In this document: piece after piece, positions 5,700-39,476 of the stretch
Layout: every line of letters starts with the position of its first letter
How positions within the stretch are numbered: the first letter of the stretch is position 1
Assembly (NCBI GenBank): GCA_005223145.1
Contig: NJBL01000002.1
Span: 3,541-67,540, forward strand
Direction of reading: 5' to 3'
From: a bacterium (candidate division B38) B3_B38
GTDB taxonomy: Bacteria; Acidobacteriota; B3-B38; Guanabaribacteriales; B3-B38
Length of the DNA stretch: 64,000 bases
Translations under genes and position numbers: made by a program
Notes under the pieces: model-generated
The model's input: only the letters and a program-made list of their open reading frames with translations
The model's database searches: none
Told to the model about the DNA's origin: nothing

Positions 5700-7700
5700 A
5701 TGAGAAAAAATCGGGTTTTTATCTTTATCTTGGGTATTGTTATTCTGTTCCTGGGGGCTTATTTACAGGGAGATGAGCTTAAAAATCGCTTAACAGTAAG
5801 CTTTTATCTTGACTGGGAATATGTGAGCAGTCCACAGATTTCTCCTGAGGGAACTCAAATAGTGTATGTGCGGCGGATAACGGAGAAGATAAATGATAAA
5901 TTCGAGAGTCACATCTGGACTATAAATTTCGATGGCTCCAGGAATCGACAGCTTATCAAAGGCTCATCGCCTCGCTGGTCGCCGGATGGGAAAAGACTGG
6001 CTTATATCTCCTCAGTTGACAACCGCTCTCAAATATTCGTCCGCTGGATGGATACGGGAGAAGCCACTCAGATAACCCATTTGGACCAGAGCCCAAGCAA
6101 CATAGCCTGGTCGCCAGATGGGAAAAAAATTGCCTTTACCATGCTGGTTCCTTCATTTACCCCGTCTTGGATTAAAATGCCGCCCAAGCCAAAGGGCGCC
6201 AAATGGGCTGACCCAGCCATGGTCGTTGACCGCCTGAGCTACCGTAATGATGGTCGCGGAAATAGACCGTTGGGATTCCGTCACATTTTTTCAGTACCTG
6301 CTACAGGTGGAACTCCCCGACAGTTAACCAACGGCGATTACGACCATGGAGCACCGCAGTGGAGCCCGGATGGGCAGACTATTATCTTCAGCGCCACCCG
6401 AAAACCCGAAGCTGAGTATCTGCCTGGAGGCTCGGAGGTCTATGCTCTCTCATTAAAAGATGGGCAGATTCGCGCTTTAACCGACCGAGATGGACCTGAC
6501 TCTAACCCTAAAGTTTCTCCTGATGGACGATTCATTGCTTATACCGGATACGACCAAAAGAATTACAGCTACCATGTCAGCAAGCTCTATCTTATGGATT
6601 CTGATGGTCAGAACAAGCGCCTTCTCTCGGAGAAGCTGGATCGCTCAATTAGAGGCGTTATTTGGGCGCCAGACAGCAGTGGAATCTATTTCGCGGTAGG
6701 CGACAAGGGAACCTCCAATATTAATTTCGCGCCTGTAAGCGGAACTATCAGGCAAATCACCAAGGGAACTCATATGCTTAGCTCCCTTTCCCTCTCTTCA
6801 AATAATCGGGCTGTGGGCATTCTCTCCGCTCCCTGGGAGCCTGGCGATTTGGTCACCTTTTCCCTTGACCAGCCAACCCATGCAAAAATTACCGGAGTGA
6901 ATGAGGATCTTTTAGAAGGGGTTAAACTGGGAGAGGTGGAGGAGATCTGGTACAAATCCTTCGATGGAAAACCTATCCAGGGGTGGATTATTAAACCCCC
7001 TGATTTTGACCCTGAGAAAAAGTATCCTTTGATTCTTTACATTCACGGCGTTCCCCATGCTATGTACAGTGTCGCTTTTAATTTTGAATTCCAGAATCAC
7101 GCTGCCCACGATTATGTTATCCTCTACACCAACCCCAGGGGGAGCACCGGTTACGGTCAGGAATTTGGCAATGCCATATGGTACAGCTATCCCGGCGATG
7201 ATTATCATGACCTGATGAAAGGGGTAGATGCTGTCCTTACAAAGGGCTACATCGATGAAGAGAACCTCTTTGTCTGCGGGGGGAGCGGCGGCGGCGTGCT
7301 TACTTCATGGATCGTCGGTCACACAGACCGCTTCAGAGCAGCCGTGGTCATGAAGCCGGTCACCAACTGGTACAGCTTTGTGGGCACCACTGACGGAGCC
7401 CACTGGTACCGCAGATTCAGAAAAATGCCCTGGGAAAATCCCCAGGAGTATCTTGACCGTTCACCTATTTCTTACACGGGGAATGTCACCACACCCACCA
7501 TGGTGTTAACCGGGGAGTTGGACCTGCGCTGCCCCATGGAGCAGACTGAGCAGTATTACAGAGCTCTCAAGATACAGAAGAAAGAGACCGTTATGGTTCG
7601 CATACCCGGAGAGTACCACGGAATCGGGCGGAGAAATCCTACGCATAAAATTGCTCAAATACTCTATCTCAGGCAATGGTTTGAACGGTATAAAAAATAG
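5700..7700 (+). CDS. S9-family serine peptidase with N-terminal beta-propeller (acylaminoacyl-peptidase / prolyl oligopeptidase-like)
   Basis: Repeated WSPDGK blades (WSPDGKRLAY, WSPDGKKIAF, WSPDGQTIIF). C-terminal alpha/beta hydrolase with GGSGGG nucleophile elbow. RBS AAGGAGG 7 nt upstream of the chosen Met; signal-anchor N-terminus. Confidence 0.75.
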   Translation: MRKNRVFIFILGIVILFLGAYLQGDELKNRLTVSFYLDWEYVSSPQISPEGTQIVYVRRITEKINDKFESHIWTINFDGSRNRQLIKGSSPRWSPDGKRLAYISSVDNRSQIFVRWMDTGEATQITHLDQSPSNIAWSPDGKKIAFTMLVPSFTPSWIKMPPKPKGAKWADPAMVVDRLSYRNDGRGNRPLGFRHIFSVPATGGTPRQLTNGDYDHGAPQWSPDGQTIIFSATRKPEAEYLPGGSEVYALSLKDGQIRALTDRDGPDSNPKVSPDGRFIAYTGYDQKNYSYHVSKLYLMDSDGQNKRLLSEKLDRSIRGVIWAPDSSGIYFAVGDKGTSNINFAPVSGTIRQITKGTHMLSSLSLSSNNRAVGILSAPWEPGDLVTFSLDQPTHAKITGVNEDLLEGVKLGEVEEIWYKSFDGKPIQGWIIKPPDFDPEKKYPLILYIHGVPHAMYSVAFNFEFQNHAAHDYVILYTNPRGSTGYGQEFGNAIWYSYPGDDYHDLMKGVDAVLTKGYIDEENLFVCGGSGGGVLTSWIVGHTDRFRAAVVMKPVTNWYSFVGTTDGAHWYRRFRKMPWENPQEYLDRSPISYTGNVTTPTMVLTGELDLRCPMEQTEQYYRALKIQKKETVMVRIPGEYHGIGRRNPTHKIAQILYLRQWFERYKK

Positions 7701-31230: not shown

Positions 31231-32349
31231 GTGGATGAGGTGATTGACCTGAAAAATTGGAGGAGAGGCTTAACAATTTTTCTGTTTACCATCTTTTACT
31301 TGTTTCTCTCACCCTTATTCAGGGAAAACTATGCCTGGCAGGAGGAGAGAGGAGCAAAATTCCGCAAGCTGTGGGAGTTCCAGGTTGGAGAAGCCACCAA
31401 TTTTACGTCTTCCATAGCCATTCTCACCCAACCTATTTGTGATGCGGAGAAGGTCTATTTCGCCTCCGAAAACGGAACCTTCTATGCCTTGAATATTGTC
31501 AGTGGAGAAAGGGTCTGGGAATTCACCGCCGGCAGTCCAGTTCGACAGAGTGCTACCTTGGGGGACCACAGCCTTTTTGTGGCCACCTCGGGCATGGAAG
31601 CACTATCTCTGGACCTCATTACTGGAAATCTGCGCTGGAGAAGGAGGATGGACGGCGAAATCTTCACTCCCTTAATCTTCAATAAAGGTGCTTTGTATTT
31701 CGGCTTTTCCCGATATATCGCTTGCTTGAGAGCCTCTGATGGGGAAGAGATATGGAGATTTGAGACTGGGGATGAAGTCCATGCTCCCCCAATTATTGAA
31801 GGTGAATTCCTTTATGCGGGTTCGGACGACGGCTTCCTCTACGCTCTCACCCCACGAGAGGGTAGGCTTCGGTGGAAATTCTCCACCTCCGGGAAAATCG
31901 TAGCTGCTCCCCTGCTGTTTGAAGGAACGCTCTTTGTGGGAAGCTACGACAACTACATCTACGCTCTACACCCCGACTCAGGAAAGCAGAAATGGAAGAA
32001 AATCACTGGCGGGGATGTGAATTGCCGCCCGATAGGATGGGAAAAGTGGGTATTTGTTTCCTCCTTAGACAATTTTCTATATTGCTTGCAGGTGAAAAAC
32101 GGCTATCTCTCCTATAGGTTCAGACTTCCTTACCGCCTTTACCACTCGCCGGTAATTTCCGGAGACCTCCTGTTTATGGCTCCCTTATCTGATACACTGG
32201 TCGTTATAGACCCCATAAATGGGGAGAAGGTGGGTGGTTTTACTGCTCCTTCCTTGATAACCTCCCCTCCTGGCCTGTCCCCAAATGGAGATATCATCTT
32301 CATCGGTACTAATAAGGGGCTCCTCATCGCCCTCAAATTGATAAGTTAG
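31231..32349 (+). CDS. PQQ-like beta-propeller repeat protein (BamB-like)
   Basis: N-terminal membrane anchor. Repeated roughly 40-aa units of the form G.lYa....G.l.A......W. Confidence 0.55.
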   Translation: MDEVIDLKNWRRGLTIFLFTIFYLFLSPLFRENYAWQEERGAKFRKLWEFQVGEATNFTSSIAILTQPICDAEKVYFASENGTFYALNIVSGERVWEFTAGSPVRQSATLGDHSLFVATSGMEALSLDLITGNLRWRRRMDGEIFTPLIFNKGALYFGFSRYIACLRASDGEEIWRFETGDEVHAPPIIEGEFLYAGSDDGFLYALTPREGRLRWKFSTSGKIVAAPLLFEGTLFVGSYDNYIYALHPDSGKQKWKKITGGDVNCRPIGWEKWVFVSSLDNFLYCLQVKNGYLSYRFRLPYRLYHSPVISGDLLFMAPLSDTLVVIDPINGEKVGGFTAPSLITSPPGLSPNGDIIFIGTNKGLLIALKLIS

Positions 32350-32524
32350 TTAGCGACTTGGTAAATATCCAATTGAGATTGGCTATAAATTTATGAAAAA
32401 AGATTTAAAATAGATGTGGAAATGCAGAGATGTAATCCGAGAATGGTTAAAACAACATTATTTAGAAACCTTCAGTATCTTAAAAACATTCTTTGTATTT
32501 AGATTTATACTTTTACTCATTGTT

Positions 32525-33619
32525 TCACAGAAGAAAGCCATATACAATGTGTTCTAAATCATTGTAATTATTTGAGATGATTTTAAACTTTTCTAAATTT
32601 AATTCCATAGCCATTGATTTCAGCCTTTTTACATCAGACTCTCGAGGGTTTAGCTTTACCTCATATGCCTCTTTTTTATCCAGAATAATGTCAATTTCTA
32701 CCCCATTTTTTCTTTGATAATAATTGAACTCTCCCTTAGGCCTAAGATTCTGAAAAATACTGTTTTCGAAAAGGCTTCCCATATCCAAGTTAGCAAAATG
32801 ATTGGCTATACCGGTATCACATAGGTAAACCTTAGGCATCTTTCTAATCTCAGAATTTCTTCCTTTACTAAATGGTCTTATTGTTTTTATGAAGTATATA
32901 CCCTCCAAGAAAGAAATATATTCGCTCAATGTTGGACGAGAAATACCCAATTCTCTTGAGATATTTTGAATATCTAATTTAGAACCAAGCCGTTGCATCA
33001 AAAGTAACATTAAATCTCGAATAGCTTCGTTTCTTCGAAAATCCCCTAACTGTAGAATTTCCAGTTGAAAAAAGGAATTGAAGATTTCTTCTAATGCTTT
33101 TTTCTTCTCTTGAGCATTAGATTTTAAAACTACTCCTGGAAATCCGCCAAATTTAATATATTCATCATATAAAAGAGAAATTTCGTCAAAGATCGGTTGG
33201 GTGATATGGCGCGCATTCTCTGGTATTCTTAAAGAGCTTCCTTTGAATAAGAGACATTCACTAAAACATAAAGGAAAAAGCTCAAAAATATATTTCCTTC
33301 CAGAAAGCGATTCTGTGAAAAGGTTTTTTAAGTAGAAACTGGCTGAACCGGTCAAGAAGAATTTTACTTGATAATGGTCAATAAAATATTTAACGACTGA
33401 AGGTAGATTTTTTACAAACTGTATCTCGTCCAAAAATATGAACGGCTTACTCGTAAAATCAATTCCTAAACTCTCAAACGAGAACTTGATTCGCTCATAA
33501 TTACGCTCTTCAAAATATTTTCTATTTAATGGATTTTCTAAATCTAAAAAAACTTTATTTTTCGAGGCAATTTGACTATCAATAAATTTGAGAAGCGTCG
33601 TTTTACCAGTCCTCCTCAT
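32525..33619 (-). CDS. AAA+ ATPase of the COG1373/DUF4143 family; N-terminus lacks an ATG (possible pseudogene or ATA start)
   Basis: The track ORF begins inside the Walker A (GMRRTGKTTLL). The frame stays open 27 codons further upstream (…IVKPRLIFNTIKAYLDSPEAIIVTG), with ATA at the position where family members have Met. The gene lies in a low-GC segment. Confidence 0.55.
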   Translation of the reverse strand: MRRTGKTTLLKFIDSQIASKNKVFLDLENPLNRKYFEERNYERIKFSFESLGIDFTSKPFIFLDEIQFVKNLPSVVKYFIDHYQVKFFLTGSASFYLKNLFTESLSGRKYIFELFPLCFSECLLFKGSSLRIPENARHITQPIFDEISLLYDEYIKFGGFPGVVLKSNAQEKKKALEEIFNSFFQLEILQLGDFRRNEAIRDLMLLLMQRLGSKLDIQNISRELGISRPTLSEYISFLEGIYFIKTIRPFSKGRNSEIRKMPKVYLCDTGIANHFANLDMGSLFENSIFQNLRPKGEFNYYQRKNGVEIDIILDKKEAYEVKLNPRESDVKRLKSMAMELNLEKFKIISNNYNDLEHIVYGFLL

Positions 33620-33695
33620 TCCAGTAACGATGATTGCCTCGGGAGAATCAAGGTATGCTTTGATTGTGTTAAATATTAGCCTTGGTTTGACTATA

Positions 33696-33765
33696 CATTA
33701 CTATTTGTCAAGTATATTTCACATATAGTAATACTATTTGCAAAATATATTTTACATATAGTATA
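33696..33765. repeat. two imperfect tandem ~33-bp direct repeats (…ACTATTTG-N5-TATATTT(T)ACATATAGTA…) upstream of the AAA+ ATPase gene
   Basis: cattactatttgtcaagtatatttcacatatagta and atactatttgcaaaatatattttacatatagta lie side by side in an AT-rich intergenic region. Confidence 0.4.
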
Positions 33766-33893
33766 AACGAACTTAAAAATGCAAAATAAACCTCCATGCC
33801 AATTGAAATAAGTCTTGGATAAAGGATAAAAATAGCCCTGAAAGAAAGATAATACCATCCAATAAGACTTAAAAGAAGTTAAATAGAAAGGGC

Positions 33894-34817
33894 TTAAATC
33901 AAACCCTTTTCCTTAAGGTAGGCTTCGGCTGCGATGGCAGCTGTTGTGCCGTCGCTCATAGCATTGGTGATTTGCTTAGCTAACTGGAATCGGATATCCC
34001 CGGCAGCAAAGACCCCCTCTGCCGAGGTCAACATCTTAAAGTCGGTCTTAATGTAGCCTCTCTCGTCCAGCTCCAGATTTTTATTCAGGAGCTTACTGTT
34101 GGGTACAAATCCTATATAAATAAACACCCCGCTGACCTCAAGAGGGCTATTTTTGCCTGTCTTCACATTCCTCAGCAAAAGTCTCTCCACCGTCTCCTTC
34201 CCCTCTATCCTTTTTATTATGGTATCCCAGATGACCTCTACTTTAGCATTCTCAAGAAGTTCCTCTTGAAGCTCCTTTTTAGCTCGCAAGCTATGCCGTC
34301 GGTGAATAAGATAAACCTTCTGGGCAAACTTAGTTAAATATACAGCCTCCTGTACCGCAGCATCCCCCCCGCCGACTACTGCGATGGTCTGCTCGGCGAA
34401 AAAGGGTCCATCACACAGAGCGCAATAAGAAATTCCCTTCCCCAGAAACTCTTTCTCTCCCGGAACATTAAGCCACCTTGGCTCACCCCCCGCAGCCAGA
34501 ATTACCGCCCCTGCGTGGTAGGTACCTTTTGCCGTTTTTACCACCTTCGCATTCCTTTCGCTGTGAATCTCCTTCACTTCTTCCAGCTTTATATTCGCCC
34601 CGAACCTTCGCGCATGCTGTTCCATTCGCTGGGCTAATTCAAGCCCGGAGATACTATCAAATCCCGGACAGTTCTCAATCCTCTCGGTATTTAAAATCTG
34701 CCCTCCGGGCATCTTCTTTTCCAGCACCAGAGTATTGAGCTTTGCCCGGGCACAATACAGCGCAGCTGTGAGACCTGCTGGCCCCCCTCCCACAATTATG
34801 ATATCGTATCTCTCCAT
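33894..34817 (-). CDS. trxB: thioredoxin-disulfide reductase
   Basis: FAD motif [10 protein letters not shown], redox-active CALCDG, NADPH site. Confidence 0.85.
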
Positions 34818-34849
34818 CTTCTTCTTTCAAGGAGACTAACAAAGCCCCT

Positions 34850-35056
34850 TTAGCTACCCGACTTCTCCTTGACGAGAATCTCGTAACCCTCTATCTGGAC
34901 CTCCTCAACTTTACAATTCTCACGAGACTCCCGTTGCAGAAGATTGGTCTCCTTGGTACACTTCAGGAAAGCTTCTGCGGGGTTTCTGGCCACCACCAAA
35001 CCCCAGCAGGGGATCTCCCCCAAATGGCAGACTACATAAAGCCTTAAGTCCGACAT
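34850..35056 (-). CDS. small hypothetical protein (68 aa)
   Basis: Fits between trxB and dcd on the same strand. No motif; may be non-coding. Confidence 0.25.
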   Translation of the reverse strand: MSDLRLYVVCHLGEIPCWGLVVARNPAEAFLKCTKETNLLQRESRENCKVEEVQIEGYEILVKEKSGS

Positions 35057-35113
35057 CTTTTCTCCCTCTGCCTTTCCCGGAATTGTTTTAATAATCTGAT
35101 AAATAGTTAGATT

Positions 35114-35680
35114 TTATTCCGATTCTTTTACTCTCGATAAAATTATACCCTCTTGAGCTTGATATCTCCCTCCTTTATCTCGGTAGGAGAACTCACACTC
35201 TTCATCCGCTTCAAAAAATATCACCTGAGCTATTCCCTCGTTGGCATACAGCTTCGCTGGAGAGTGAGAATGATTGCATATCTCCATGGTGATGAAACCC
35301 TCCCATTCGGGCTCCAGAGGGGTGATGTTCAAGAGGATGCCGCAGCGGGCATAGGTGGACTTGCCCACACAGAGGGTGAACACATTCCGAGGTACCTTGA
35401 AATATTCAACCGACCTTCCCAGGACAAAGGAGTGAGGCGGGATAATACACACCGCCCCTTCGAAGTCTCTGAAAAAACCGGGCCCCATTTTTTTGGGGTC
35501 GACCACCTGTCCCTCTTGGGGGGAGAAAAGCTTGAACTTATCTGCCAGTCGGATGTCGTATCCATAGGAGGAAAGGCCATAAGATATGACAGCTTGGCTC
35601 ACCTGGGAGGGAGCGAAAGGCTTGATCATTCCATGTTCCAGAGCCATTTTCTTAATCCAGCGGTCCGACTTTATCCCCAT
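35114..35680 (-). CDS. dcd: dCTP deaminase
   Basis: KSDRWIKK...GMIKPF...[14 protein letters not shown] matches Dcd/dUTPase-fold deaminases. Start taken at MGIKSD, giving 188 aa. Confidence 0.7.
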
Positions 35681-35702
35681 GCTCTTCCTTTCTGGCAAAA
35701 GG

Positions 35703-36125
35703 TCAGGAGGGCACTTCCCGGCCATCTCTCAGTGCAATGCGCCACACCTCGTCTATGGTGTCCACAAATTGGAATTCAAGCTCTTTTTTTATGGCTTCGG
35801 GTATTTCCTCCAGGTCTTTTTCGTTCCTGGAGGGGAGGATGATGGTTCTAATACCCGCCCGTTTAGCCGCCAGCACCTTCTCTTTGATCCCCCCTACCGG
35901 CAGAACCTTCCCCCTGAGGGTTATTTCCCCGCTCATAGCAACATCGGGTCGCACCGGCTTATCCATTAACAGAGAGATGAGAGAGGTGGCAATGGTCACC
36001 CCAGCGGAGGGACCATCTTTGGGTATGGAGCCCGCAGGGATGTGGATGTGGAGGTCGTATTTATCAAAGAAGTCCTCAAACTTCTTGTGGAACTCCCAAA
36101 AATCTTCTTCAAATTTACCTTTCAT
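35703..36125 (-). pseudogene. lon: 3' fragment of Lon protease gene (C-terminal half of S16 proteolytic domain only)
   Basis: [28 protein letters not shown]...[49 protein letters not shown] aligns closely with Lon residues about 665-784, including the catalytic Ser and Lys. There is an in-frame stop 4 codons upstream of the Met, and no AAA+ or N-terminal domains precede it. No Shine-Dalgarno sequence. Confidence 0.55.
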
Positions 36126-36367
36126 GAGTTTTCTTGCTTATTGGGAACCACCATGCTGAGGATTTAATTATCCCTGAGGCTCTTCTATTCCAGCCCCAAA
36201 ATATACTCAAAAAGCCCAAAATCATCGGGAGGTCTTCCTAAAAATCTTCCCTCTTAAGCTTAAAATTAATTGGGAAGAAAAATGGGTCACGCAGGCCCAA
36301 TTTAAGAAAACCCCCCGGTTTCTGGACTTTTGTAATTTGCTCTTTGGTTTATATTTGAAAACCATTC

Positions 36368-36772
36368 CTATGCCTGGTGGGCTAAATCTGCCAAAGTTGT
36401 ATTTACCAAGACATCGGTCAGATTCTGCTGGGCTTTGCTCCAGACCTCCTTTATGCCACAACTGCTTCCGCATTCGCATCGATAATCATCGCTCAGACAT
36501 CTGTTAATAGCTAGAGGACCATTAATTGCTTCAAAAACCTCTAAGAAGCTGATCTCTCTGGCTGGCTTGGCGAGCAAAAACCCTCCCTGAGAACCCCGGT
36601 GAGACCTCACCAGCCCTTCTTTCATCAGGTTTAACAGAATTTTGGCTAAGAATTGCCTCGGAATTTTCGTTTCCTCGGATATCTCCCGCAGAATCACAGG
36701 ACGACTCATTGGCTGAGAAGAGAGGTAAAGTAATGCTCGCAAGCCGTAGTCTACTTTCCTGGTTATTTTCAT
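36368..36772 (-). CDS. Rrf2-family transcriptional regulator (IscR-like, Cys ligands present)
   Basis: MKITRKVDYGLRAL N-terminal wHTH signature. Three clustered Cys (CLSDDYRCECGSSC) consistent with an Fe-S-binding Rrf2. Confidence 0.75.
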   Translation of the reverse strand: MKITRKVDYGLRALLYLSSQPMSRPVILREISEETKIPRQFLAKILLNLMKEGLVRSHRGSQGGFLLAKPAREISFLEVFEAINGPLAINRCLSDDYRCECGSSCGIKEVWSKAQQNLTDVLVNTTLADLAHQA

Positions 36773-36816
36773 AGATGCTTCTCTATTCAATAAATAATAG
36801 GTTTTCCATCATTTAC

Positions 36817-38118
36817 CTAAGTAGACTTAATGGGACCCTTTTTTACTTCCCTCTGGCCATCCATCCTTATGGAGCAGAACTTCCCACACATACTGCAAAC
36901 CTTCTCTATATACGCCTCACTCTGTCTCCTCATCTCACGGGCGCGCTGCGGGTCAATAGCCAGCTTATACATCTCTTCCCAGTCCAAGGCTTTTCTTCTG
37001 CCAGACATCTCCTCGTCGAGCTGCCTTGCCCCCTTGACCCCTTTGACCACATCCCCACAATGAGCAGCAATCCTGGCGGCGATGACCCCCTCCCTCACAT
37101 CTTCTACCGTTGGCAACCGCAGATGCTCTGCGGGAGTGACATAGCAGAGGAAGTCGGCTCCCGCCGCTGCAGCTATTGCCCCTCCGATGGAGGCGGTTAT
37201 GTGGTCGTATCCGGGGGCAATATCGGTGGGCAGGGGTCCCAGGACATAGAAGGGAGCCCCCCGACAAAGGGCTTTCTCAAGCTGAACATTAAGGACTATC
37301 TGATCCAGAGGGATATGCCCGGGACCTTCGATCATTACCTGCACATCCTGGTCAAAGGCGTAGTGGGCTAATTCTCCCAGGGTCACCAGCTCCTGAACCT
37401 GACAGCGGTCGGTGGCATCGGCTATCGCTCCCGGGCGAAGACCATCTCCCAGGCTCAGGGTTACATCATAGTTTCTGGCGATTTCCACCAGCCGCCCAAA
37501 ATCCTGGTAGAGGGGGTTTTCCCGGCCGTGATGCTCCATCCAGCGGATAAGAAAAGCGCCACCCCGGCTGACTATACCCCCTATCCTTCCCTCTTTTTCC
37601 AGCCTCTCCACCGAGTCGCGGGTCACCCCGCAGTGTATGGTGATGAAATCAACCCCCTGCTGGGCGTGCTTCTCTATCACGGAAAAGATGTCATCGGGGG
37701 TAATCTCACCATGGGTTTCCCCCCGGCAGGCAAATTCCACCATTATCTGATAGATGGGGACCGTCCCCACCATTAATGGTGAGCGCTTCAATATCTCCTG
37801 GCGGATGGCATTGAGATCCCCACCAGTGCTCAGGTCCATAACAGAATCTGCTTTGGCTTCTACCGCCACCCTCAGCTTCTCCAGCTCCTCTTCCAACAGG
37901 TTGTGGACTTCCGATGTTCCAAAATTGGCATTTACCTTGGTTTTTAAACCTTCGCCTATTCCTCGGGGGTTGAACTTTCGGTTGATATTCTTGGGTATTA
38001 CTATGCTACCTTTGGCAACTCCTTCAGCTATTACTTCGGGCTCCAGATGCTCATCCTCAGCCACCTGCTTCATCTCTTCGGTAATTATCCCTCTTTTAGC
38101 CTGAGCTAATTGGGTCAT
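36817..38118 (-). CDS. thiC: phosphomethylpyrimidine synthase ThiC
   Basis: Full-length ThiC-like sequence. C-terminal CSMCGKFCS radical-SAM-type CX2CX4C motif. Confidence 0.9.
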
Positions 38119-38260
38119 TATTCGCTCCTAAGCTAAGTTGTCTCTTTAATTAAATATAAAGCTCTTCTGGCTTAAATTCAAGACGGTTTCCTCCCTTATT
38201 ATAGAATAATTTCACTCCCTCTTCCAGTCAAATTATTCAACCCTTATTAGGGGCTTCCCT

Positions 38261-38482
38261 CTAACGTCGGCAGGTAGTGCAGGAAGTTAGGGAGCAGGAA
38301 TTGCAGCTACTGTTCGGAGAGGAGGAGGTGAAGCCTTTATCACTTTTAAATGCGAAAGCGGAGAAGAGCTTCTCTACTTTTCGGTTCTGGCATTTAGGGC
38401 ATGAAATGGCTATCCCTTTTTTCAACACTAACTTCTCAAATTTATTTCCACACGAAAGACAGCTGTATTCAAATATAGGCAT
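38261..38482 (-). CDS. FmdB-family zinc-ribbon protein
   Basis: MPIFEYSCLSCGNKFE...CPKCQNRKVEKL is the FmdB signature. Start taken at MPIFEY. Confidence 0.6.
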   Translation of the reverse strand: MPIFEYSCLSCGNKFEKLVLKKGIAISCPKCQNRKVEKLFSAFAFKSDKGFTSSSPNSSCNSCSLTSCTTCRR

Positions 38483-38537
38483 AGTAAGTTGGGCTCTCTC
38501 CTTTAAAGGGGTAACAAAATCTTCTTCTTTCTCTCCC

Positions 38538-39476
38538 TTACATCTCTTCGCCCGCATCTTTCAGGAGCTGGTTCCATATCCGGTCAACCTCGACCTGGAT
38601 ACTTTCCAGCAGCTCCTCATTTTCGGGTCGGAGCAGATGCTTAAACCTCCCCTGGTCTTTTAACCATTCCACGACTGGTATTTTCTTCCTGGGCTTATAG
38701 GTGATGCGCACCACGCCGCTTTCCACCTCATAAAGAGGCCAGAAGCAGCTATCCACTGCTCGCTGGACAAACTCCAGCCCCCGGGTGGGGTCGGTATGCC
38801 AACCGGTTGGACAGTGGCACAGCACATTAATAAAAGCGGGACCATTTACCTCGAACGCCCGGTAAGCCTTCTTCATCAGGTCCAGCCACTTAGAAGGAGC
38901 AGCCTGAGCGGCATAAGGGATATTGTGAGCGGCCATGATACGGGTGAGGTCCTTGCGGAACTGCTGTTTCCCCTGAAGCACCTTGCCCACTTCGGATGTG
39001 GTTGTTCGGGCACCTGAAGGGGTAGCGCTGGAGCGTTGTCCCCCGGTATTCATATACCCTTCGTTATCGAGGCATACATAGACGATATTGTGCCCCCGCT
39101 CCATAGCACCAGAAAGGGCTTGGAAACCTATATCATAGGTTCCCCCATCCCCTCCGAAGGCTAAGAACTTTATCTTCCTCTCCTTGGGTATCTCCCCCCT
39201 TCTTACCTTTGCCCGATACATACTTTCCAAGCCAGCTATAGTAGAGGCGGCATTGGGGAAAGCGGAGTGAATCCAGGGGACCCTCCAGGAGGAGAAGGGA
39301 AAGGTTCCCGAGCATATCTCCAAACAACCGGTGGCATTCGCTATTACAACTGGCTCCTCAAAGGAGGCCATTATCTGCCTGACGGTGATGGCTACCCCAC
39401 AGCCCGGGCACATCTTATGTCCTTGAGCAAAAGGCTCTTCTCTGGTAGCAATATCTTTCAATTTGAAGCTGACCAT
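38538..39476 (-). CDS. porB: 2-oxoacid:ferredoxin oxidoreductase beta subunit (TPP-binding; POR/VOR family)
   Basis: CPGCG near the N-terminus. TPP-binding GDGG...NEGYMNTGGQ. Confidence 0.8.
   Translation of the reverse strand: MVSFKLKDIATREEPFAQGHKMCPGCGVAITVRQIMASFEEPVVIANATGCLEICSGTFPFSSWRVPWIHSAFPNAASTIAGLESMYRAKVRRGEIPKERKIKFLAFGGDGGTYDIGFQALSGAMERGHNIVYVCLDNEGYMNTGGQRSSATPSGARTTTSEVGKVLQGKQQFRKDLTRIMAAHNIPYAAQAAPSKWLDLMKKAYRAFEVNGPAFINVLCHCPTGWHTDPTRGLEFVQRAVDSCFWPLYEVESGVVRITYKPRKKIPVVEWLKDQGRFKHLLRPENEELLESIQVEVDRIWNQLLKDAGEEM

Follow-up and report, generated by a model that had tools for sequence, protein, structure and literature searches.

An open reading frame (ORF) of 140 codons lies between rrf2 and dcd in the window, the whole 64-kb stretch of DNA analysed in this study. 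It encodes the catalytic end of a Lon protease, and the rest of the enzyme is missing. The locus thus raises the question of what this ORF is: a lon gene cut by an assembly error, a piece left by a rearrangement, the product of a deletion, or a small protein with a function of its own. The comparisons below show that the ORF is an in-frame hsp20'-'lon fusion left by a single repeat-mediated deletion of about 2.47 kb, and its product is most likely an inactive remnant.

Position and domains of the 140-codon ORF

The chimeric ORF hsp20'-'lon (140 codons and a stop) is located at 35703..36125 on the minus strand. The NCBI record of the exact protein is TKJ35857.1 (CEE39_00570) of bacterium (candidate division B38) B3_B38, where it is annotated as 'hypothetical protein'. 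The Pfam search matched Lon_C with E = 1.2e-55, in which residues 17-133 of the ORF corresponded to profile positions 88-204 of 205, and ChlI gave a weaker match. In the PDB sequence alignment, residues 18-134 corresponded to 1rr9_A 73-189 (E. coli Lon 657-773). Nothing in the ORF matches the 72 residues with which the crystallised Lon protease domain begins. The same alignment placed Ser40 (PKDGPSAG; codon at 36006..36008, minus strand) on the catalytic S679 of E. coli Lon and Lys83 (GGIKEK; codon at 35877..35879, minus strand) on the catalytic K722. The Ser-Lys dyad of LonA (MEROPS S16) is thus present. The first-pass annotation had described the ORF as the second half of the Lon S16 domain with catalytic Ser and Lys, and both alignments agree with this description.

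The other parts of Lon were searched for in the ORF and around it. The LON substrate-binding domain (PF02190) was found neither in the ORF nor in any upstream frame, nor by tblastn in the whole window; it is present in L006, a relative with the intact gene. The AAA+ module with Walker A/B and the lid (PF00004, PF22667) gave no Pfam match in the ORF, and both are in the Lon of L006. A complete S16 domain (PF05362, approximately 205 positions) was not found in the ORF, which holds positions 88-204 only. The alpha-crystallin domain (PF00011) is absent from the ORF, in which only Hsp20 residues 1-16/20 are kept. The three frames upstream of the ORF contained no Lon sequence, and only residues 673-796 of a relative's full-length Lon matched the 64-kb window by tblastn.

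An in-frame TAA is situated 4 codons 5' of the ATG of the ORF, and no Shine-Dalgarno-like motif was found 5' of this ATG. The start had been described in the first-pass annotation as a Met 4 codons past an in-frame stop, with no ribosome binding site (RBS) and no AAA+ or N-terminal domain upstream, and all of this was observed again. The hsp20 start in the intact L006 and L007 likewise has no Shine-Dalgarno motif. The missing RBS is therefore native to the hsp20 start and is no sign of a dead start.

The hsp20-lon pair of relatives and the deletion

A genome-collection scan with dcd led to two close relatives, L006, which is a Candidatus Aminicenantes MAG, and L007. The gene order thiC-rrf2-hsp20-lon-dcd, with an hsp20 of 147 aa (Pfam HSP20, residues 46-141) and a lon of 796 aa, was present in L006, L007, L093 and L095-L101, and further intact loci were found in L093, L094 and L095-L102. 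The intact Aminicenantes relatives are 87–90% identical to the window and collinear with it on both sides, for no less than 7 kb upstream and 10 kb downstream. This comparison of synteny, which had been proposed at first reading, revealed the ancestral state. The proposal of a rearrangement breakpoint beside the rrf2 end of the Fe-S/POR/thiC array was not supported, because the relatives share the order and orientation thiC-rrf2-hsp20-lon-dcd, and the adjacency to rrf2 is therefore ancestral.

BLASTN aligned L006 1-7143 with window 43214-36064 (90.1%) and L006 9603-11883 with window 36078-33799 (88.3%). The two segments share exactly window 36064-36078, which is a 15-nt repeat, and L007 and L093 behave alike. 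The locus, the flanks and the upstream spacer of the orthologous hsp20-lon pair are common to the relatives and the window, whereas the window is without the 2,474-2,475 bp between the two repeat copies, TGA(A/G)GACTTCTTTGA. In the intact relatives, one copy covers hsp20 codons 17-21 and the other lon codons 673-677. The 15-mers of L007 and L093, both intact, are TGAAGACTTCTTTGA (hsp20) and TGAGGACTTCTTTGA (lon), which are 14/15 identical and spaced by 2475 (L007) or 2474 (L093). The repeat encodes EDFF(E/D) and is in frame in both hsp20 and lon. The deletion of about 2 kb of lon that had been suggested for this locus is borne out by the 2.47-kb gap between the repeats in the relatives.

The sole remaining repeat copy, TGAGGACTTCTTTGA, is the deletion junction at 36064..36078 (minus strand), as defined by the BLAST overlap. 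The DNA is of hsp20 type up to AAGTTT and of lon type from GAGGACTTCTTTGAT onward. The hsp20-derived 5' part (36079..36125, minus strand) comprises the ATG and codons 1-16 and matches the N-terminus of the relatives' 147-aa Hsp20; 15/16 of the first ORF residues agree with the sister protein P0128 ('Hsp20/alpha crystallin family protein'). The Met from which the ORF was said to begin abruptly is in the position described, but it is actually the hsp20 start codon, followed by the first hsp20 codons. The lon-derived 3' part (35703..36063, minus strand) comprises Lon residues from about 678 to 796 and the stop, which is the C-terminal 57% of the S16 domain. The last 124 residues of the sister Aminicenantes Lon (L006/P0130, 'endopeptidase La') are 96% identical to the remnant.

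In our best explanation, the intervening DNA was lost when the two 15-nt direct repeats recombined or when replication slipped from one to the other. The deletion took away one repeat copy, hsp20 codons from about 21 to 147, the 62-63-nt spacer and lon codons 1-672, and joined Hsp20 residues 1-16/20 with Lon residues 673/677-796. Since both genes read the repeat in the same frame, as EDFF, the fusion is automatically in frame. It keeps the hsp20 upstream region and start codon, as well as the lon stop 22 nt before dcd, and for this reason the fusion is probably still transcribed and translated. Translation through the fusion would keep ribosomes moving to dcd and so avoid polarity on the downstream genes. 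In-frame alleles may persist by avoiding such polarity on dcd, which starts so close to the lon stop. The deletion allele is probably young relative to the split from the sister species.

The upstream neighbour rrf2 (134 aa; 36368..36772, minus strand) is in its ancestral position. Between rrf2 and the ORF, the ancestral rrf2-hsp20 intergenic spacer of 242 bp (36126..36367, minus strand) is retained intact, and its sequence has changed very little within the genus. The rrf2 terminator is presumably located in it, and so are the hsp20 promoter and leader, which would now serve the chimeric ORF. The non-coding stretch of about 240 bp up to rrf2 in the first-pass annotation had the right length, but it is really the conserved upstream region of the deleted hsp20. 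On the other side, dcd (188 aa; 35114..35680, minus strand) starts 22 nt past the lon stop as in the relatives and is probably co-transcribed with the fusion ORF. The program-made ORF list gave dcd as 203 aa from 35725, overlapping the lon stop (35681-35725). The start of dcd is most likely the ATG at 35680, as suggested by the Shine-Dalgarno-like AAAGGAAG upstream of it and by the gene calls in relatives. With the start at 35680 rather than 35725, there is therefore no overlap between the ORF and dcd.

A structured element of approximately 120 nt was predicted in the spacer at 36210-36331 (minus strand), with a long hairpin around two small ones. Its minimum free energy (MFE) was -52.8 kcal/mol with z = -5.4. 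The structure was present in 6/6 aligned genus sequences, which are nearly invariant with almost no covariation. The element could represent the terminator of rrf2 together with a leader or regulatory element of hsp20. The Rfam search over 35600-38700 found no known RNA, and the sigma-70 promoter scan of the spacer found none. Upstream of thiC (38119-38260), neither a TPP riboswitch nor any other Rfam family was detected at E ≤ 1, and a 98-aa zinc-ribbon ORF (38261..38557) is located just upstream of the thiC region. The AAA_14/DUF4143 ATPase gene (ORF 32525..33619) lies in an insertion at 32337-33767 relative to L006, L007 and L087. This insertion is also present in L003, L090 and L091, and only a 104-aa DUF4143 fragment was called in L089.

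The junction in other assemblies and a second deletion

Eight other assemblies (L001, L002, L004, L086 and L089-L092) contain exactly this junction string, and the 140-codon ORF is open in all of them. These are 97–99.6% identical to the window, each with its own SNPs, and come from SRA, ENA and JGI data sets: the Logan contigs SRR14803097, SRR16071516, SRR30888626, SRR31055082, SRR31055107 and SRR31055092, the ENA assembly ERZ27249619 and the JGI contig Ga0114930_10026335. The carrier contigs hold the order thiC-rrf2-140 aa-dcd in full or in part. No intact allele of the window's species turned up in a degenerate DNA search of the JGI metagenomes that used the lon side of the junction. Every allele seen in this species has the deletion, which is apparently fixed.

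The first-pass annotation had also considered an assembly chimera, in which the true genome would hold an intact lon across a local mis-assembly. The junction sits in a short repeat, and the related MAG GCA_041862395.1 has its lon broken over two contigs. However, the 15-nt repeat is shorter than assembly k-mers, and the same junction recurs in the eight further assemblies, which derive from varied runs and pipelines (Logan unitig-based, MEGAHIT-style ENA and JGI) and carry their own SNPs in the flanks. The lon-side search of the JGI metagenomes, which returned no intact allele of the species, also stands against it. We give this explanation next to no probability, and the eight independent assemblies exclude the chimera. 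A rearrangement that relocated the 5' part of lon and most of hsp20 elsewhere in the genome is highly improbable. Only 64 kb of the genome is in view, which leaves room for it, but the flanks are collinear with the relatives on both sides, and neither the window nor the 20-kb loci from this species hold any other Lon or Hsp20 sequence. The missing DNA is exactly the inter-repeat interval with one copy left, which is the signature of a deletion. The in-frame deletion between the repeats is thus the reading that we retain.

In the MAG GCA_041862395.1, lon is split over L003 1-545 (the 3' 180 codons) and L101 3849-4774 (the 5' 309 codons), with no assembled sequence for the part in between. The L003 sequence had appeared as a 96%-identical partial match (P0001). 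Its hsp20 and the 5' end of its lon are on L101, so that this gene is split by assembly and not deleted.

The degenerate DNA search of the JGI metagenomes with the lon side of the junction returned two contigs only, L086 and L087. L086 has the same deletion as the window, and L087 is approximately 83% identical to the window. L087 encodes a second fusion ORF of 399 aa (P0122/P0124; L087 6904-8103 and L088 10001-11200), in which Hsp20 residues 1-41 are fused to Lon at the Walker B motif (…SNKWK followed by FNEIDKLGADFRGDP…). What remains of Lon in this fusion is part of the AAA module, together with the lid and the whole Lon_C domain. Approximately 1.7 kb is missing, no clear microhomology was visible, and six more bases are gone within the fusion (FMLDEID to FNEID). 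The same allele was found in the ENA contig L088, which makes two assemblies, and the L088 sample (ERZ27249619) also holds the window-type allele.

The L087/L088 allele and the window allele are both in-frame hsp20'-'lon fusions at the same locus, and both keep the hsp20 start and the lon stop. Their end points differ: the second deletion begins at hsp20 codon 41, spans about 1.7 kb and leaves the lid and the full protease domain. L087 branches outside the group formed by the window, L006 and L007, and species nearer to the window are intact; the two hsp20-lon deletions are therefore independent. As a type of event, the fusion is an ordinary gene remnant, and the curiosity is the convergent in-frame loss in two species.

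In L087, rrf2 contains stops and frameshifts (6250-6650), and no rrf2 gene was called in L088. The genes thiC, dcd and trxB are intact in this rrf2-pseudogene lineage (L087). We gave up the idea that a sweep had spread the second deletion, as L087 and L088 are approximately 99.9% identical over 10 kb outside one divergent block.

Fate and meaning of the remnant

The dN/dS of the 124 retained codons was 0.04-0.056 between the remnant and intact relatives, and 0.065-0.105 between intact copies. The second allele gave 0.065-0.087. Because the dN/dS of the remnant is no higher than that between intact copies, the deletion is probably recent on the lineage's branch. These ratios suggest that both deletions are young relative to the species branches, or else that the remnants are constrained. 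No stops or frameshifts were found in the remnant in the nine assemblies. As far as the selection tests go, a recent deletion and a functional remnant would fit the data alike.

Polymorphism among the carriers of the first deletion was 9 synonymous vs 2-3 non-synonymous in the remnant. L001 and L002 were left out of this evidence, because they were found by exact-protein look-up, which returns identical proteins only and would make the argument circular. The unbiased evidence comes from L004, L086 and L089-L092, which were found via other genes or DNA. The variants of the remnant are all confined to a patch of 115 nt (35784-35898); over the remaining 308 nt of the ORF, and also over the first 90 nt or so of the spacer, the carriers are invariant. 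The patch violates the four-gamete test, with all four gametes at two site pairs. Its variants are best read as a recombination tract imported from lineages with intact lon, not as mutations after the deletion. A function thus cannot be read cleanly from the low pN/pS, since the variants would have been filtered in an intact lon, and the 9:2 synonymous excess was set aside as a sign of function.

Patches of 7-14% local divergence between strains that are otherwise 97–99% identical were also observed at 34500-35499, in the 3' half of dcd, orf68 and trxB. In L002, 16 differences are found within 116 nt of dcd (patch 35350-35495). The pattern of these divergent patches indicates frequent imports from diverged lineages by recombination.

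The AlphaFold model of the 140-aa protein, made with 62 aligned sequences, had a mean pLDDT of 76.8. Residues 1-35 were below 50, and within them DLHIHIP, the strand which in Lon pairs with the missing N-terminal sheet, was unformed. Residues 40-135 (pLDDT of about 90) were modelled as a compact alpha/beta unit with both catalytic residues. Foldseek returned only Lon protease domains, over approximately 100 residues at 1.2 Å with a target-normalised TM-score of 0.51-0.57, and found no standalone protein with this half-fold. The fusion product is without the N-domain and AAA+ module of Lon, without at least the first third of the protease domain and without the alpha-crystallin domain, and it is therefore likely inactive as a protease or chaperone. 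The remnant is most likely translated but inactive, comparable to an expressed pseudogene.

Many Lon_C matches of 130-240 aa were considered as a standalone mini-Lon family and rejected. Most of them are on contigs of 1-3 kb, and one on a long contig (P0002/L005) is a frameshifted full-length lon: the 175-aa 'Lon_C only' call at L005 4150-6530, on a 67-kb long-read contig, is a full-length lon with frameshifts. At least some short Lon_C entries in the databases are therefore assembly or calling artefacts.

A functional 140-aa chimera kept by selection is a very unlikely alternative to the inactive remnant. It might act as a heat-inducible, ATP-independent Ser-Lys peptidase, or as a regulatory or decoy protein composed of the C-terminal Lon protease sub-domain and the amphipathic N-terminal peptide of Hsp20. 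The ORF is open in all nine assemblies, its synonymous excess at face value points to purifying selection after the deletion, and both dyad residues are present in the well-modelled part of the protein. The independent in-frame fusion in the sibling species also fits, as fusions of this kind could be useful. However, the polymorphisms are confined to the single patch that violates the four-gamete test, which points to an imported tract. Moreover, the protease domain is without its first 72 residues and the joining strand is modelled as disordered, Foldseek gives complete Lon protease domains only, and the one short Lon_C call examined on a long contig comes from a full-length lon with frameshifts. 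The peptidase activity of isolated Lon protease domains is weak even when the domain is complete. The first-pass annotation had likewise held a functional mini-protease to be less likely, and the absence of the N-domain, the AAA+ module and part of the protease domain agrees with this. A broader form, in which the 140-aa and 399-aa fusions are selected AAA-less peptidases or regulators on the hsp20 promoter, or in which the convergent loss of Lon and Hsp20 is adaptive in energy-starved sediments, also appears unlikely to us.

The loss itself, rather than its product, may have been favoured. Under this explanation, the loss of hsp20-lon was adaptive in sediment Aminicenantes; the alleles rose by positive selection, with locus sweeps via recombination, and in-frame alleles survived because they preserve the expression of dcd and the downstream genes. 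Both deletions begin within the first 41 hsp20 codons, are in frame, and remove the whole alpha-crystallin domain together with the N-domain and Walker A of Lon. Only the deletion allele was seen in the window's species, in two haplogroups that are 2.5–3% apart genome-wide, and around the junction a stretch of approximately 320 bp (35899-36218) contains no SNP. The start of dcd shortly past the lon stop also fits the preserved expression. On the other hand, there are two events only, which would both be in frame by chance in about 1 in 9 cases, and the repeat by itself sets the frame of the first. Other 500-bp bins in these comparisons are also poor in SNPs, and the second-deletion assemblies, which are nearly identical over 10 kb, give no sweep signal. 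Neutral loss fits equally well, for example if a second lon made this one redundant. We therefore regard adaptive loss as a doubtful explanation, worth keeping in mind beside neutral decay, and retain the inactive fusion remnant as the description of the ORF.

TKJ35857.1 should accordingly be relabelled as a truncated hsp20-lon fusion remnant, and the window's species should be scored as without this Lon and this small heat-shock protein. The locus is a clean example, from an uncultured sediment species, of how a major quality-control protease can be lost in nature through a repeat-mediated deletion. If the loss is adaptive, or if the genomes hold no other Lon, it bears on protein turnover in slow-growing subsurface bacteria; otherwise it is routine gene decay.

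A search of the literature on natural in-frame lon deletions and on candidate division B38 found nothing useful. The closest known enzyme is LonA, represented by E. coli Lon (structures 1RR9 and 3WU3). Residues 18-134 of the ORF are 55% identical to residues 657-773 of E. coli Lon, and the dyad is conserved. Unlike LonA, the ORF product is without the N-domain, the AAA+ module and approximately 72 protease residues, and it cannot be an ATP-dependent protease. A natural parallel for the loss is found in E. coli B/BL21, which is naturally lon-deficient owing to IS186 in the lon promoter. The loss of Lon has been tolerated and fixed in E. coli B/BL21, and apparently the loss of this Lon in the window's species as well, but it is due to a promoter insertion in the former and to a repeat-mediated deletion with a chimeric ORF in the latter.
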